Shown one piece after another: positions 12,465 through 19,627 of a stretch of DNA of 20,000 nucleotides. Below the pieces are notes generated by a model. That model made no database searches. It was not told where the DNA came from and saw nothing but the letters and a program-made list of their open reading frames with translations. Within the stretch, counting starts at the first letter, position 1. Every line of letters starts with the position of its first letter. The position numbers and the translations under genes are program-made. The stretch comes from an uncultured virus (IMG/VR IMGVR_UViG_2585428069_000013) (Duplodnaviria > Heunggongvirae > Uroviricota > Caudoviricetes): the IMG/VR virus record IMGVR_UViG_2585428069_000013. One strand, written 5' to 3'.

Positions 12465-12629
12465 TTACGGTGCTACTACATTACCACTTGTACTGAAGTC
12501 TACTGTTTGGATTCTTGTTGTTTGAGCACTAATCTTAGTGTAAACTGGCTTAGCTACTGCTGTTGCGATTAATCCTAATAATACAATTGCTATAATCATA
12601 TAAAACGCTTTCTTTAAATCTAATTCCAT
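12465..12629 (-). CDS. Flp-like small pilin, intact copy (54 aa)
   Basis: MELDLKKAFYMIIAIVLLGLIATAVAKPVY... has a single hydrophobic helix. Start at 12629 is supported by an AAGGAAGGAG RBS and by the paralogue starting at the same codon. Pilin function inferred from size and context. Confidence 0.65.
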   Translation of the reverse strand: MELDLKKAFYMIIAIVLLGLIATAVAKPVYTKISAQTTRIQTVDFSTSGNVVAP

Positions 12630-12777: not shown

Positions 12778-13152
12778 TTATATTTTTTCATATAACTTAC
12801 CTCTTAGAATTTCTAACTGTTCCTTTAACTTCTTGTTTTCATCTTCAAGTTCCTTAATTTTTTTATCTTTTGCCATTATAATAATATCCTTCGATTTAGC
12901 TGTCTTATCATACTTAGCCCTTTGGTTCATAGTTCTACTTGTTTGTTTATCTCTAAGTTCTTCAATTCTTTTCTTTATATCTTCATTGTTATAAAGAAAA
13001 GTTTTAGAAACTCCACTTAAATTACATACACTATTAAAATTAATCTTCTGTTCAGTCAAAGAAAGTTCTCTAATGGCTTTATCAACCTTTTCTAAAGTTA
13101 ATTCTGTTTTCTGTTTTGCGTATTCTTTTAATCCTTTAGTACTTCCAGCCAT
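12778..13152 (-). CDS. tnpC: Tn554-type TnpC (DUF6262-like) protein
   Basis: KINFNSVCNLSGVSKTFLY HTH-like segment and a C-terminal coiled coil. Third gene of the trio. Confidence 0.8.
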   Translation of the reverse strand: MAGSTKGLKEYAKQKTELTLEKVDKAIRELSLTEQKINFNSVCNLSGVSKTFLYNNEDIKKRIEELRDKQTSRTMNQRAKYDKTAKSKDIIIMAKDKKIKELEDENKKLKEQLEILRGKLYEKI

Positions 13153-15134
13153 TAGATTGCATCCTCCCTTGATTTACCGTTTTTATGAACTAATTTGTGT
13201 TCTCTAACTTTTTCTAGTGTTTTCTCTAATATATCTAAATACTGTTTATTCTTTTCTGCCCAAAGCTCTCTACCACATCTATTACTTATTTCTATTTGAC
13301 TTTTAACCTTTTCTATTTCTTCCTCATATTCAGGAATATTTTCAATTGTAGTACAGAAACTCGCACAAGTTAAGCAATGATTCATCTGTTGTTTACAAGG
13401 CAATTTAGAAGCTTTAAAACATACTCCAAACGGTACTTTTACTGCATCTAAGTTTTTCTTAACATATTCATATCTTATAAGGTTTTGTCCAGCATCAGAA
13501 GTTAAATCTATCTTTTGAAGTTCGTTAGTTTTAGTGTCAACTTTAAATAATTCTAAATCCTCTGTATCCTTCCATTTTTCATAAAGAACATTTTCACTAA
13601 CAGTAGCATAATGAACTGTCATTTGAAGGCTTTGATGACCTAAAATCTGTTGTATAATACTAATTCCCATACCTTGTTCTACATACTCTTTAGCTCTTGT
13701 ATGTCTTAATGAGTGAAGTCTAAAGTGATATAACTCACCTTTAACATCTCTAATATCTTTTTGTTCAATAAGTCTTTGAATTGTAAGTAATAAAGATGTC
13801 TTATTTAATGGCTTTCCTTTCAACTTACCTTTATAAGTATTGAATAAATACTTTTTAGCATTGTTTTCTTCTGTACTTAAATCTTTAGCTTTATCAATAG
13901 CTTTTTGAACCATCTCAGCAACCTTATCCCTAATGGGAATTTTAAGTTGTGCTATACCTGTTTTAGTTATTTCGCCACAAAGATAGTAATTATATTTTTC
14001 TTCTTTGCTGTTCCAAGTTAACTCTAGACAATTATGATATCTAAGGTTTAATATATCAGTGCCTCGCCAACCTGTTTCTCTAAGAAGAATGTAAATAGGA
14101 ATATACTGAGGTCTATCCAAATCCATAATATTGTTATCTAATTGTTTTAATATAGGCTCTGGAACGAATTTAGCTTTTTTAACTTCATCCTTATTTAATT
14201 CTCTTTTAGGAATATCATCTTGAAATATTAAAAATGACACTTCTTTTTTAGGATACTTATCATATTGAGCCATTTGAATATATTCTAAAAATGTCCTTAA
14301 ATAAGATACAAATTTACATCTATAAGTTGGGTTTTTATCTTTATAATCATTACCTAACCAATATAAATAGTTCTCTATATCTTGTCTTGATAAACTTTCT
14401 ATAAAACCATCTTTATACCCATTAGAATAAAAAATAATAAAAAAATAATTTAAATGGCTTATTATCTGGTGACAATGATTCCAACTTTTTTTAGTAATTA
14501 TAGTTTTTAAATACCTTTTTACAATATCTCTATAATAAATTGGAATACTTATAAAATTAATATGACCATTTACTCCATGAACTCCACTAGCAGGGATTTT
14601 AGCCCCTTTAATATTCTTTGAATACCATATATCTTTTTCAGTTTCTTCTCTATCATCATATAAATCCTTAACAAACATTATTAACTGATTAATAGAAGAA
14701 ATGTAGCTGGAACTTCCACTTGGTGTTTTTAATGTTTCGTTAGTACAAACATAATTTAATAAATATAACTTCCACTTATCTAAAAATTCTTGTATAACAA
14801 CTTCATTAAATGAGTTTATTTGATAAAAATATCTATCTAAAAAATTTCCTAAAGGATTAATTCTGTAAGAGTAATTTAATATGGTTTCTTTTTTTAACAA
14901 TTTATTCTTTACTAAATATAAGATAAAAAATTTAAATTCCGTTTTTAGAGAATCATTATGAATATGAGAAAAATCTATGTATCTGCTTTTGTAAACTTTC
15001 TTGCCAATAAAAAATTCTTCAGTAAAATCCCACTTATCATTTTTTAACCAGTATCCATCATCTTGTTTTAAATACTCAATTATTTCATCATATTTACTTT
15101 GTTCATTGTGTTTTATCTGCTGTAAATTCTTCAC
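13152..15134 (-). CDS. tnpB: Tn554-type TnpB tyrosine recombinase (unrelated to IS605 TnpB)
   Basis: ETGWR, KT, HSLRH, LGH and HY catalytic set, with a C-terminal Cys cluster (GVC...PC...HCLTCASFC). Confidence 0.9.
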   Translation of the reverse strand: MKNLQQIKHNEQSKYDEIIEYLKQDDGYWLKNDKWDFTEEFFIGKKVYKSRYIDFSHIHNDSLKTEFKFFILYLVKNKLLKKETILNYSYRINPLGNFLDRYFYQINSFNEVVIQEFLDKWKLYLLNYVCTNETLKTPSGSSSYISSINQLIMFVKDLYDDREETEKDIWYSKNIKGAKIPASGVHGVNGHINFISIPIYYRDIVKRYLKTIITKKSWNHCHQIISHLNYFFIIFYSNGYKDGFIESLSRQDIENYLYWLGNDYKDKNPTYRCKFVSYLRTFLEYIQMAQYDKYPKKEVSFLIFQDDIPKRELNKDEVKKAKFVPEPILKQLDNNIMDLDRPQYIPIYILLRETGWRGTDILNLRYHNCLELTWNSKEEKYNYYLCGEITKTGIAQLKIPIRDKVAEMVQKAIDKAKDLSTEENNAKKYLFNTYKGKLKGKPLNKTSLLLTIQRLIEQKDIRDVKGELYHFRLHSLRHTRAKEYVEQGMGISIIQQILGHQSLQMTVHYATVSENVLYEKWKDTEDLELFKVDTKTNELQKIDLTSDAGQNLIRYEYVKKNLDAVKVPFGVCFKASKLPCKQQMNHCLTCASFCTTIENIPEYEEEIEKVKSQIEISNRCGRELWAEKNKQYLDILEKTLEKVREHKLVHKNGKSREDAI

Positions 15135-16262
15135 CTATTCTTCCACCTCTTTATAAATATCTAAGTTTAAATTCGGTTGAGTTTTATTGAACTCTTCCGT
15201 TATTTCTTTATCAGAAGGGTGAATATAGGTGTTCATAGTTGTATAAATATTTTTGTGTCCTGCTCTTACTCTAAGCAGTTCTGGTTGCCATCCAGCCATT
15301 CTTAATAGAGTCAAAGAGCTGTGCCTAAACATATGTGGTGTAACATATATATTTATTTTCTTTTTTAATGTTCTAAATAGATTATCTACATCTACATAAT
15401 CCATAGCTTTGTATTTGTTATTGCCACTTATCTTTATAAAAATATGATTAGTCTCTACTTCTTCATTATGGTATTCAGCTATATATTCCATAAACATATC
15501 AGCTAAATTTTGTGATATATCTATTCTTCTAGGACTTGATACTGTCTTAATTTCTGCATTATTTTCAAGCTGTCCTCGGTCTTGTAAGTCAATAATCATA
15601 TCACTTATATCAATATCTTCAATCCATAATGACAAAGCTTCGCCTATTCTCATACCTGTTTCATAAAGTAGTGATAACAAAAACTTATCTCTTAAATTAC
15701 TACAAGCTCTTACGAGCATTCCTATTTCTTTTTTAGTAAGTGTCTTAGGTTTACTCTTAGGAACTTTTAGCTTTAGTATATTGCTTGTAATCTTCTTCTG
15801 TTCATAAGCTATTCCATATAAAAATCCTTTGAAATTTCTGCTTGGAGTAGACACAAACTTTTTAAGTCTATCTGAAATATTATTGCTATATTCCTCATGT
15901 CTTAAAATATAGTCATAAAAAGCTAAAACTGTATTAACTATAATATTTATTGTTCTTGGACTTCTTGCTGAATCAACTTGGTTTGTTGGTATTACTTTTA
16001 AGCTCTTATATGGGTTCTGCAACCAGTTCACGAATAAAGCCAAATCATCAATAGTCACTTTTTGAAAATCTAATTCTCTTTGTTGTAGATACTCAAAATA
16101 TAACTTCAAATGTTGACAATACATTCTAAGTGTATTCCTTGCATAATTGGTGTTATCTTTAAACCTAATAAACTTTAATATAGGTTCTATTGGTAGTCCA
16201 TCATCATTAGCTACAAAGTATCTCTCTTTATCGTCTTCTGTTCTTGCTTTTACTACTTCCAT
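15135..16262 (-). CDS. tnpA: Tn554-type TnpA tyrosine recombinase
   Basis: ETGMRIGE, IKT, HMFRH, GH and TYIH catalytic set. AGGAG RBS. Confidence 0.9.
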   Translation of the reverse strand: MEVVKARTEDDKERYFVANDDGLPIEPILKFIRFKDNTNYARNTLRMYCQHLKLYFEYLQQRELDFQKVTIDDLALFVNWLQNPYKSLKVIPTNQVDSARSPRTINIIVNTVLAFYDYILRHEEYSNNISDRLKKFVSTPSRNFKGFLYGIAYEQKKITSNILKLKVPKSKPKTLTKKEIGMLVRACSNLRDKFLLSLLYETGMRIGEALSLWIEDIDISDMIIDLQDRGQLENNAEIKTVSSPRRIDISQNLADMFMEYIAEYHNEEVETNHIFIKISGNNKYKAMDYVDVDNLFRTLKKKINIYVTPHMFRHSSLTLLRMAGWQPELLRVRAGHKNIYTTMNTYIHPSDKEITEEFNKTQPNLNLDIYKEVEE

Positions 16263-16710
16263 ATTTCTATATACACTCCTATGATTTATTGATTTATAAT
16301 CATAGGGTTTACTACAGCTACTAAATTTATTCTAACTATTTATATAGTAATTTAAGTTATATATCTATATAAGAATGTATTACAGAATACTATAACTATC
16401 ATCTAATCAACTACACTATATTCCTTTATATATCTTTAATAATTTATTTGATTGATTATTATTTAAAAACTTAAGTTAAGGTGCTACTACATTACCGCTA
16501 GTGCTGAAATCTACTGTTTGGATTCTTCTTGTTTGGGCGTTTATCTTTGTATAAACAGGTTTTGTTACGGCAGTTGCGATTATCATATAAAAAGCTTTCT
16601 TTAACCCTCCTGTGCGAAATTCTCCCATCCTCTATAGGTGGGAGATGGATAGCACTTGCCGATAGGCAACAGATGCTTTATCCTATCGTGGCAAGAATTT
16701 TTTCCTTCTT

Positions 16711-18003
16711 CTATAAATGGGGATGATTTGCCGTTCCCAAAGCAACTTCTTTGTATATCCAATTGTTATTCCTGCTTATAAGACTTACATTATCCGTACT
16801 TATTTGCTTATATTTTGGTGACACTTGCAAATAGTTACCTTCTATATCCTGCACATATACCATATTACCTGTAAATCCAGATACAAAACCTGTATTTGAT
16901 CCAATTTTCACCTTATCAAACAAACACCATTTCTTCCCTTTAGATATTATTTCCTTAGTGTTCTTGCTGTTACGTTTAGATGTTATATTCGGTTCTTTCC
17001 TGCCTTTTCTTGCTATTGCTTCATGTAAACTTCTTTTCTTTTTTCTAACTTGTTTTATAAGATACCAGTTATCTAATCTCTTAACGGTTGAGTTTCCTGT
17101 GATACATAATGCGTCTATTCTATGTTCTTTAGGTAAATTATTGGTTATCCTAGTATTTTTAGTGATGTACCCATAAGTTAAATTTACATTTGAGTACAAC
17201 TCCTTTAGCTTATTATAAAAACTCCAACGCATTATTCCCATAAATGCTGCATCTCTAAATGATTGACCACGTTTTAGGTTTAGCTTTAGTTTCCCTGAAT
17301 GATAGTCCTTATGGCAATCTTCACAAAGTGTAATTAAGTTATCGGGGCTATCACCTCCAGTTTTCCTTGATTCTATGTGATGTACATTAAGTATCTTCCC
17401 TTTACAATTTTTCTTACCTTGGCATTTATGACCATCCCTAAAAATTACGTATTCTCTTACATTCCAGAATCCTAGTTGATTTCCTTGCTGGTACTTTTCG
17501 CCTTGTATATCTGGATTCTTAATCTTCTGTATATCAAAACTTGCTACCTCAATAATAATTTTGCTGATAGGTAGTAGGCTATGGACTTTATTTACAACTT
17601 TCAAATGAGTACCAATCTTGTTTTCTATTGATGGAGCTAACCACCCTTCTGTTTTTTTTCTATTTTCAAATCTAGGCTGCCTATATCTGGTTTTCCTACT
17701 TCGTCTCGAACGTCTAAATTGCCTTTTAGTTGCTAATAATTCTACAATATCAGTTCTCAATTTTAGTTCAGCAGAAAATAGCTCACATTTATATGTTGTT
17801 GCAGATAAACCAATTGTTCTATTTCCTGCATCAACACCTAATATTGTTTCCTGTGTTGTTTCTCCCGTAGCATATAATAACTGTATTGTAAAAGGCTCAT
17901 AAGTTATGATCTTTGCTTTTTTCTGTTTTAGGAATATTCTTGCTTTTCTTTGTGTTGTTGGCATTAGTGGTTGATTTCTTTGATTTTTGACGTATACTCT
18001 CAA
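16711..18003 (-). CDS. iscB: RNA-guided endonuclease IscB (430 aa)
   Basis: PLMP motif, RuvC-I LGVDAG, Arg-rich bridge helix, RuvC-II IIIEVASFD, HNH VHHI...NLITLCEDCHKDYH and RuvC-III HRIDA. True start is TTG 18003 with an AAAGGAGG RBS. Confidence 0.95.
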   Translation of the reverse strand: MRVYVKNQRNQPLMPTTQRKARIFLKQKKAKIITYEPFTIQLLYATGETTQETILGVDAGNRTIGLSATTYKCELFSAELKLRTDIVELLATKRQFRRSRRSRKTRYRQPRFENRKKTEGWLAPSIENKIGTHLKVVNKVHSLLPISKIIIEVASFDIQKIKNPDIQGEKYQQGNQLGFWNVREYVIFRDGHKCQGKKNCKGKILNVHHIESRKTGGDSPDNLITLCEDCHKDYHSGKLKLNLKRGQSFRDAAFMGIMRWSFYNKLKELYSNVNLTYGYITKNTRITNNLPKEHRIDALCITGNSTVKRLDNWYLIKQVRKKKRSLHEAIARKGRKEPNITSKRNSKNTKEIISKGKKWCLFDKVKIGSNTGFVSGFTGNMVYVQDIEGNYLQVSPKYKQISTDNVSLISRNNNWIYKEVALGTANHPHL

Positions 18004-18019
18004 GTTACGTCCTCCTTTC

Positions 18020-18247
18020 GGATTTATTTGCCCTTCGCCAATGTTGGAAAGCCTTCGCAATGTGGTTGACCGTTCCTTACCCTCAGAACTTTTACAGAGC
18101 CACGAAAGAGCCAAAAACTAGAGCATCATTCTTGGGTTTCTACATGCAATCCAACGTAGTATTTTTTTCGCTACTTAGGCTAGTCAACTAGGGCTTCAAA
18201 GAATTTCTTCTCCAAGCTACCACTTCTTCAAGTGGGGGTTAGTTGAC
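18020..18247 (-). ncRNA. omegaRNA (HEARO-like) scaffold; the guide would come from flank 18248 to about 18265
   Basis: Starts GTCAACTAACCCCCAC... and pairs with ...AGTTGACTAGCCTAAG. Contains ACTACGTT and AACATTGGCGAAGGG motifs typical of iscB-upstream RNAs. 3' end approximate. Confidence 0.85.
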
Positions 18248-18326
18248 ATCTAATTCCACACACTTCACCTCCATTACACCATATTTTTTAAAATTTAAGC
18301 TTTAATTAATTCTTAAATACAATTAT

Positions 18327-18355
18327 ATTTTATCATACTTCAATTTTATTTACAA
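18327..18355 (-). promoter_or_regulatory. Sigma-A promoter of the pilin genes, now reading into omegaRNA-iscB
   Basis: TTGTAA-N17-TAAAAT with extended TG, about 70 bp upstream of the pilin GTG. Confidence 0.6.
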
Positions 18356-18481
18356 TAATTTTGTTGTTTAATTTATGTTTATTTAATTTACATATTAATC
18401 GTACTTATTACATACAACTAGTATAGTCATACCTTATAAACCTTTATACATAAGGGATTTCCTCTGTATACCCATATACCT

Positions 18482-19627
18482 TTATATTGTATTCTTGATA
18501 ATATCAAAGAATGGTAGCATGATAAGTAATATTAACAGAAGGATTAATGGAAATTGCAGTAATGTAAGCCTTATTCTTTTATTTCTATTTTTCTGCTTAT
18601 TCATTGTTTCTTCCATGGCTAAACGTAGATTTCTCTGTATTTTTAGAATCTGATTATTAGTAGCTTTATCAGAATTTAAGCACTGTTTTAAAATTGTAAT
18701 GAACTTGGTAAACTCAGAGTTATCTACTTCTGTTACAAGCTCATCTAAAGCTTTCACTGGACTTGAAGTATACATATTTAAACACTGCTGAAAATTAGAT
18801 CTTAATACTTTTGATTGAGCTTTCATCTGCTGAAGCAAGGAAACAACGTTTATATTCTCTTTATTCATCAGAAGTATTGTTACCGCCTCAATTTTCGCAA
18901 ATTCTTTTTCAATCTTGGCAATTCTAATTGACTTCCTAAAGCCGAATATTAAGTCTATTATCCCTGTAGATAGTAAAGCAAGTAACAATAAAATACCTAC
19001 ATTTGCTGGAGATATAATGGTCATGTTATAGGCTTGAAGTAGTGTTTGTAATACTTTACGAGCGGTTTCATCTTTATTGTCTTGAATGCTGAGTTCTTCC
19101 CTTGCATCCCCAATTATTGCAGCAAGCTCACCTACCTTATTTTTCTTAAAATAGGTTTTATAATTAGGTGCTTTCTCCAGTGTTTTTTGTAATAAGCTAT
19201 CATAGATAGAATTACTTCCTTTTACATCTGTATCTGTATTTCCCATTATTAAAGTAACTGCATTATTGTTATCTGATTGCTCTAATATCCCCTTTTCTCT
19301 TAAGGTATTCATATTTACATAAACACCAAAAATGAATATAAAGGATATTATAAAAAACACTACTTTTATAATTGCTACTTTTTCTAAGGATAGTCTTATT
19401 CCTGCTTTTAAAAGTTTTTTTCTTTCCTTTTCATATCTAACTGAATCCTTTTTAGGTGTCATCATTTTAATTAAAAATGATCCCTCAATCTTACTTATAA
19501 ATTCCTCTCTGCTATCCTTTTCGTACATGTATTTATTAATAGTATTCTTCAATCTTTGTCTAGGTAAGGGTATCAATGTTAGTAACAACAATGCCCCTAC
19601 TCCAGCCAATATATAAACTATAGTCAT
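18482..19627 (-). CDS. TadC-like (T2SS F-fold) pilus platform membrane protein
   Basis: N-terminal TM, RKKLLKAGI motif, further TMs, a cytoplasmic helical domain (KALDELVTEVDNSEFTKFITILKQ) and a C-terminal FPLILL...MLP TM, as in TadC. GGAGG spacing favours ATG 19627. Confidence 0.65.
   Translation of the reverse strand: MTIVYILAGVGALLLLTLIPLPRQRLKNTINKYMYEKDSREEFISKIEGSFLIKMMTPKKDSVRYEKERKKLLKAGIRLSLEKVAIIKVVFFIISFIFIFGVYVNMNTLREKGILEQSDNNNAVTLIMGNTDTDVKGSNSIYDSLLQKTLEKAPNYKTYFKKNKVGELAAIIGDAREELSIQDNKDETARKVLQTLLQAYNMTIISPANVGILLLLALLSTGIIDLIFGFRKSIRIAKIEKEFAKIEAVTILLMNKENINVVSLLQQMKAQSKVLRSNFQQCLNMYTSSPVKALDELVTEVDNSEFTKFITILKQCLNSDKATNNQILKIQRNLRLAMEETMNKQKNRNKRIRLTLLQFPLILLLILLIMLPFFDIIKNTI

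Follow-up and report, generated by a model that had tools for sequence, protein, structure and literature searches.

An IscB element with two left ends in tandem, a modest variant of known IS200/IS605 behaviour

One TnpA excises several families of element ends, and excision depends on pairing between guide and motif, according to the accessible text of Meers et al. (10.1101/2023.03.14.532601). The same text reports that flexible spacing is tolerated and proposes that this allows outside sequence to be captured (10.1101/2023.03.14.532601). In IS608, guide bases 1 and 2 pair with motif bases 2 and 1 (PMC3201880, accessible portion). For OrufIscB, the accessible portion of the source gives a TAM of NTAAA, with any first base and ATAAA as the best, and cutting in vitro by the wild type with guides down to 11 nt (PMC13180657). 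Central to the persistence of such elements is that transposase target and nuclease TAM agree, and how either side changes is at stake.

Here we describe an IscB element within a window of 20,000 nt (the whole stretch of DNA that was analysed). It is probably a non-autonomous element that has kept its own decayed left end and gained an intact one by nesting in an IS605-family element, after which the composite jumped. In the accessible literature on nested or captured IscB/IS605 ends or on a TTAAA TAM, no description of a natural double-ended IscB element was found.

Element layout, interrupted gene and other copies

The element spans 16605 to 18247 and lies within a small pilin-like gene. The features are as follows.

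12465..12629, minus strand: intact paralog of the interrupted gene (MELDLKKAFY...), about 4 kb away, showing the empty junction
16476..16604, minus strand: 3′ remnant of the split pilin-like gene (LKKAFY...VVAP), shorter by 24 nt than its intact paralog
16600..16604, plus strand: TTTAA motif at the outer junction, where the insertion took place (read on the minus strand as the IscB TAM TTAAA), with CC from 16605
16605..16655, plus strand: outer left end of the IS605 family, with a 13-nt tail, guide AATT (16618-16621) and hairpin 16622-16644
16656..16669, plus strand: small hairpin TTGCC-GATA-GGCAA, a standard module of the outer-end family and the left arm of the third stem
16670..16681, plus strand: linker, putatively left from the host element, ending in TTTAT
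16677..16681, plus strand: inner junction motif TTTAT, with CC from 16682
16682..16732, plus strand: inner left end, decayed, with a 14-nt tail, guide AATT (16696-16699) and a broken hairpin overlapping the iscB stop
16711..18003, minus strand: iscB, 430 aa, with the PLMP motif and the RuvC and HNH catalytic positions present
18023..18247, minus strand: omegaRNA scaffold (HEARO), full length, model positions 1-211 (107.2 bits, gathering score 83)
18213..18247, plus strand: right end, with guide CAAG, hairpin 18220-18235 and cleavage motif TGAC (18244-18247), from the sequence and the pairing rule in PMC3201880
18248..18269, minus strand: 5′ remnant (VELD) of the split gene together with its upstream flank, from which the omegaRNA guide is predicted to be drawn

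The two left ends lie in tandem on the plus strand, offset by 77 bp, in agreement with the nested ends placed here by the first-pass annotation. When the flanks were compared with the intact paralog, no target duplication was found. The flanks VELD and LKKAFY rejoin as in the paralog, and at the outer end only, so the element was inserted by its outer end, as had already been read from the gene junction. The insertion lies directly 3′ of the motif, and the right-end guide CAAG predicts TGAC, found at 18244-18247; both are IS200/IS605 features.

The pilin label is based on gene size, a hydrophobic segment and a neighbour resembling T2SSF/TadC (a match below the naming bar). Pfam gave no support for it, and no match to the gene was found in 11 other genomes of the genus or in viral contigs. 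Between both pilin-like copies, at 12778-16262, lies a three-gene unit (two tyrosine recombinases and DUF6262) that we take to resemble Tn554/RIT elements; in runs X2, X4 and X5 the two copies adjoin each other. Neighbouring genes for ThiF/E1-like and nucleotidyltransferase-like proteins at 29-2711 presumably resemble, by eye, a CBASS-type defence pair.

The iscB product has the features of an IscB OMEGA protein, namely a PLMP/RRXRR N-terminus (Pfam RRXRR, 1.8e-63), a split RuvC and an HNH domain (7.1e-08). D58, E152, H209, H294 and D297 line up with their counterparts in solved IscBs, residues that we take to be catalytic. The predicted omegaRNA lies upstream of iscB and would draw its guide from the flank, as in OMEGA systems. 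An Rfam scan of 16300-18500 (E up to 1) returned HEARO alone and no group I intron, which does not fit an IStron.

No tnpA was found within the element, which is thus not an autonomous IS200/IS605 element. PF01797 had three matches in the genome, a broken remnant on contig C7 and two genes unlike the IS605 tnpA query. No intact IS605 tnpA was found in the assembly (25 contigs, 8000 bases withheld), and the element is therefore likely immobile at present.

Assembled contigs from 4 of 22 listed runs were compared at this locus. The double end is present at one and the same position in X2 and X4 (from one study) and in X5 (from another), with 4 sequence differences across approximately 1 kb, and these copies reflect one insertion rather than independent ones; X6 covers 16422-16669 alone. 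Base 16604, the motif base next to the cut, is changed to C in X2 and X4, and in X5 the small gene also occurs intact as a tandem copy, including the 24 nt. The contigs of X2, X4 and X5 have no cover at 18162-18255, a stretch that takes in the right junction, and such a gap is uninformative. None of the 22 loose ends listed, with 31 more beyond the listing, fell at the inner junction, and no assembled contig skips the element as an excision joint would (contigs drop rare variants).

The two left ends and the predicted target motif

The outer end follows the IS200/IS605 left-end pattern, with guide AATT predicting the TTAA observed. Its hairpin folded at -10.1 kcal/mol (DNA folding of the minus-strand piece; z -3.31; 1 of 200 shuffles as good), whereas the inner region folded at -3.2 (z +0.34; 116 of 200 shuffles as good), which bears out the earlier description of an intact outer and a decayed inner hairpin. 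Folding of top-strand 52-mers gave -10.1 for the outer and -2.9 for the inner end. The mean for 22 single-ended relatives was -9.8, including one mis-extracted end and several clipped long-loop ends. At the inner end AATT again predicts TTAA, but the flank reads TTAT.

When the 202-nt end region was searched against other genomes of the family (380 scored, 20 unscored, two candidates scored per genome), 91 of the 380 matched, nearly always by the outer segment alone; among the matches listed, none outside the genome that holds the window spanned both ends. Outer-type ends were parsed by pattern in 19 of the 45 loci listed (18 with TTAA, 1 with TTAG), and the guide was AATT in all. A tnpA (query residues 10-94) lay just inside the end in 10 of 38 outer-type loci, and one outer-type locus, L046, has an open tnpA frame of 133 aa. 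The owner of the outer end was found to be a TTTAA-targeting IS605 tnpA-tnpB family (L045, L046, L172, L173, L178): judged by its sequence, the outer end is the left end of this widespread family. It also occurs singly at IscB genes. The second IscB of the genome (contig C13, 73% aa identity) has an outer-type end alone, with TTTAA, the L016 IscB uses one singly, and P0128 (cluster of P0003, 82%) reads straight through its C-terminus into one. The outer 77 bp consist of a left end and the small hairpin and lack a right end of their own, unlike a PATE mini-element.

A stand-alone outer-type left end at G000 C5:218730-218805 is almost fully palindromic, with TTTAA on both sides. Symmetry of this kind, with an overwritten guide, is suggested for the IscB ends of C3 and L016 too.

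The third stem, proposed earlier to bridge the two ends, does fold (-8.5, z -2.78; 1 of 200 shuffles as good), but as a special bridge it was rejected: its left arm is the small hairpin of the family, and the single TnpB ends L150 and L151 carry both a near-identical tail and that hairpin.

Aligned with the inner end, the single ends of L017 (84% aa identity), L026 and L321, all at TTTAA, keep the same register, and the homology with L017 runs on into the coding sequence. On this alignment, the inner end is the own left end of this IscB lineage, since decayed. The 90% protein cluster has six further members, the closest proteins (P0121-P0126); five of them end in ANHPHL or ANHLHL at the protein level, so the right arm of the inner end is common to those five. 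The relatives lack the 130-bp double structure as a normal end, whereas its general presence was what the first-pass annotation had named as refuting its reading.

The fourth guide base of IS608 pairs with the fourth motif base. The guide rule held in many ends (AAGT or AATT with TTAA; GATA, GAAA or GAGA with TCAT), and the exceptions among single-ended elements were L010 and L023.

In the C-terminal class of the window IscB, 38 recognisable single ends were found among 56 other distinct ends (18 of 56 gave no end by pattern, in a test that gave ATAA an equal chance). The flank was TTAA in 37, TTGA in 1 and ATAA in none; the 37 are not independent, 10 being copies of one family. The window IscB keeps 40 of the 41 C-terminal columns conserved in these 37 members, and on such evidence the outer motif TTAA is the class motif. 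Because the C-terminal domain aligns with no solved IscB, the TAM was read from flanks alone; it is likely TTAAA, or possibly NTAAA as in OrufIscB. The first TAM base is the sole difference between ATAAA and TTAAA here, and OrufIscB tolerates any base there.

These counts bear on the model of the first-pass annotation, in which the inner end targeted TTTAT, the IscB recognises ATAAA and capture of a TTTAA end uncoupled transposase from nuclease. The capture and the use of the outer end were supported; the uncoupling was not, given that 37 of 38 class ends have TTAA. The outer end thus carries the motif of the class whatever the inner target was, TTTAT included, and its capture would preserve or restore coupling. 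The model draws on the normal 14-nt spacing at the inner junction, on the pairing of AACA with TTAT seen in L088 (an IscB of another class) and on the position of the guide within a decayed, T-rich stretch. It also draws on the inner 14-nt tail, which resembles ends whose target ends in T: it is alike at 13 of 14 positions with the TCAT-type TnpB ends C13 and L151 (guide GATA) and at 10 of 14 with L017. A family pattern search for the tail gave 34 places, 30 with loci, in which the ends were C13, L150 and L151 alone, all with TTCAT and guide GATA; among viral matches 0 of 35 resembled an end. Against the model, neither the loci examined nor the genome yielded a TTAT-type end with a tail of this family, ATAA adjoins 0 of 38 class ends, the present guide predicts TTAA, and the protein has the C-terminal domain usual among TTAA-flanked members. 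Taken as a whole, the model is unlikely. At the window locus the motif was likely unchanged by the end swap, and coupling would be kept, not broken.

How the inner TTTAT arose is a separate matter. At the linker offset, other outer-type ends had TTAA in 0 of 19 and TTAT in 1 of 19 by strict pattern, and TTAT was seen by eye in L138, L180 and L191. This native TTAT and the tail likeness both favour a native TTAT target, so the inner end may have been of TTAT type or have come in by a near-cognate insertion. We tentatively place first a later mutation of TTTAA, only slightly ahead of a true TTAT-type end whose guide mutated afterwards; a near-cognate insertion is a little less likely again, and a deletion improbable.

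Off-consensus motifs were noticed at five places in a tally that was not systematic. Four differ at the base adjoining the left-end cut (X2/X4 TTTAC, L016 TTTAG, L182 TTTAG and the inner TTTAT), and L280 differs elsewhere. Changes at that base may reflect element locking or error-prone repair.

Close IscB relatives were found in 0 of 11 other genomes of the genus, and samples of the family, class and phylum gave distant ones alone. In a tree of 48 rows, the window clade fell in an open group with P0002, P0004, P0013 and P0003/P0128; the tree does not give the order of end swaps. Across loci L001-L366, IscBs that are 60-70% identical in the N-terminal part form two classes by their C-terminal part, with TTAA flanks in the first and mostly ATGA flanks in the second, which suggests an exchange of the TAM-reading module.

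The predicted guide (18248-18258) has an 11-nt match adjoining TTAAA in the paralog (12613-12628), the longest TAM-adjacent guide match in the genome. Self-targeting of, or homing into, the paralog is possible, because OrufIscB cuts in vitro with 11-nt guides.

Proposed history and nested ends elsewhere

The capture of an outside end by the window element is supported. In the history that we propose, the IscB element would first have landed 77 bp within the left end of an element that targets TTTAA. A TnpA supplied in trans would then have paired the IscB right end with the left end of the host, and the composite would have moved into the TTTAA site in the pilin-like gene. Having become redundant or unusable, the inner end would have decayed afterwards. 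Excision at the outer end would leave a TTAAA joint that is predicted to be cut by this IscB, and it is for this reason that coupling is considered kept.

The same final left side would be expected had the IS605 element been first in the pilin-like gene and received the IscB element inside its left end, and had the remainder of the host element later been lost (recombination between its right end and that of the IscB element is one way), with no composite jump. In favour of this, every copy seen, in runs X2, X4 and X5, sits at one site; against it, the full-length omegaRNA abuts the gene fragment from model position 1 with no host remnant, so the deletion would need to be exact, and we regard it as improbable. 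Equally improbable is an origin of the double end by recombination of two IscB elements or by local end duplication: the outer tail is alike in 47 of 54 columns with that of the C13 IscB of the same genome, and a C13-like element is present in runs X2, X4 and X5 as well, but the inner and outer ends are alike in only 35 of 54 columns (aligned with the inner window shifted by one base) and are each closer to a different family, which argues against local duplication. Moreover, no base is missing from the tip of the inner end, as expected of a TnpA joint.

Nesting followed by a composite jump may have a second instance. L031, an IscB of the TTAAA class, has a double-ended region (L031:2795-2964) with an intact TTTAA inner end, then 164 nt, then an intact TTCAT outer end with guide GATA. 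The 164-nt stretch begins with the 3′ half of another omegaRNA (86% to C3 over 76 nt), and the IscB end was inserted at a TTAAA within that omegaRNA. The upstream flank is an unrelated gene, the 5′ half of the second omegaRNA is absent, and a search for the empty site gave no plasmid match. From its arrangement, L031 fits the same nesting route with a real change of motif and is a better candidate than the window for a true target switch.

When 180 distinct IscB 3′ ends were scanned, an end was found in 61 and two ends in 2, by a strict test that misses decayed ends, including the inner one of the window. L029 was considered as double-ended and rejected, its weak GTTAC site lying inside a coding frame. 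At L308:510-560, an IscB left end at TTTAA is followed by an apparent TnpB-type right end, a possible further nested insertion.

More generally, though less likely than not, nesting in IS200/IS605 elements could be a recurring one-step swap of the left end that can change the insertion motif with the nuclease unchanged. The window element would then be a swap that keeps its motif, and L031 one that truly uncouples transposase and nuclease and lets one element jump to either motif. A natural intermediate of an end swap shows a one-step route and offers ready substrates, with two ends per element, at two loci and with different outcomes. There is also a practical warning: a TAM read from the first end after iscB would be ATAAA here, compared with the class motif TTAAA.

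Comparison with known systems

The window feature is a real, modest variant of known IS200/IS605 behaviour. The ISGst5 (IscB) and ISGst1-4 (TnpB) elements of Geobacillus stearothermophilus, as the accessible text describes them (10.1101/2023.03.14.532601), are likewise non-autonomous members of the IS605 family, with an omegaRNA upstream of iscB in ISGst5, a left-end motif read by a DNA guide and one TnpA for several end families. ISGst5 uses TTCAT and is described there with one left end per element, whereas the window element has a second left end and the class motif TTTAA. IS608 of Helicobacter pylori has a four-base guide 5′ of the hairpin that pairs with the cleavage tetranucleotide (PMC3201880, accessible portion), a rule that the outer and right ends obey. 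Unlike the window element, IS608 is described in that portion as TnpA plus TnpB with one left end; the inner end of the window departs from the rule at the base adjacent to the cut.

OrufIscB is, in the accessible portion of its source (PMC13180657), an IscB with an A-rich TAM, as is predicted for the window IscB. The similarity covers query residues 110-351 and stops before the C-terminal domain, so the OrufIscB TAM is not transferable to the window IscB. A further likeness is to the source family, found in the same genus and family: the IS605 tnpA-tnpB elements L045, L046, L172, L173 and L178 and the C7 remnant, in which the outer end is matched at 89-93% over approximately 70 nt, with the same guide and motif. 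The ends of that family lead into tnpA and tnpB, whereas that of the window leads, after 10 nt, into a second left end.
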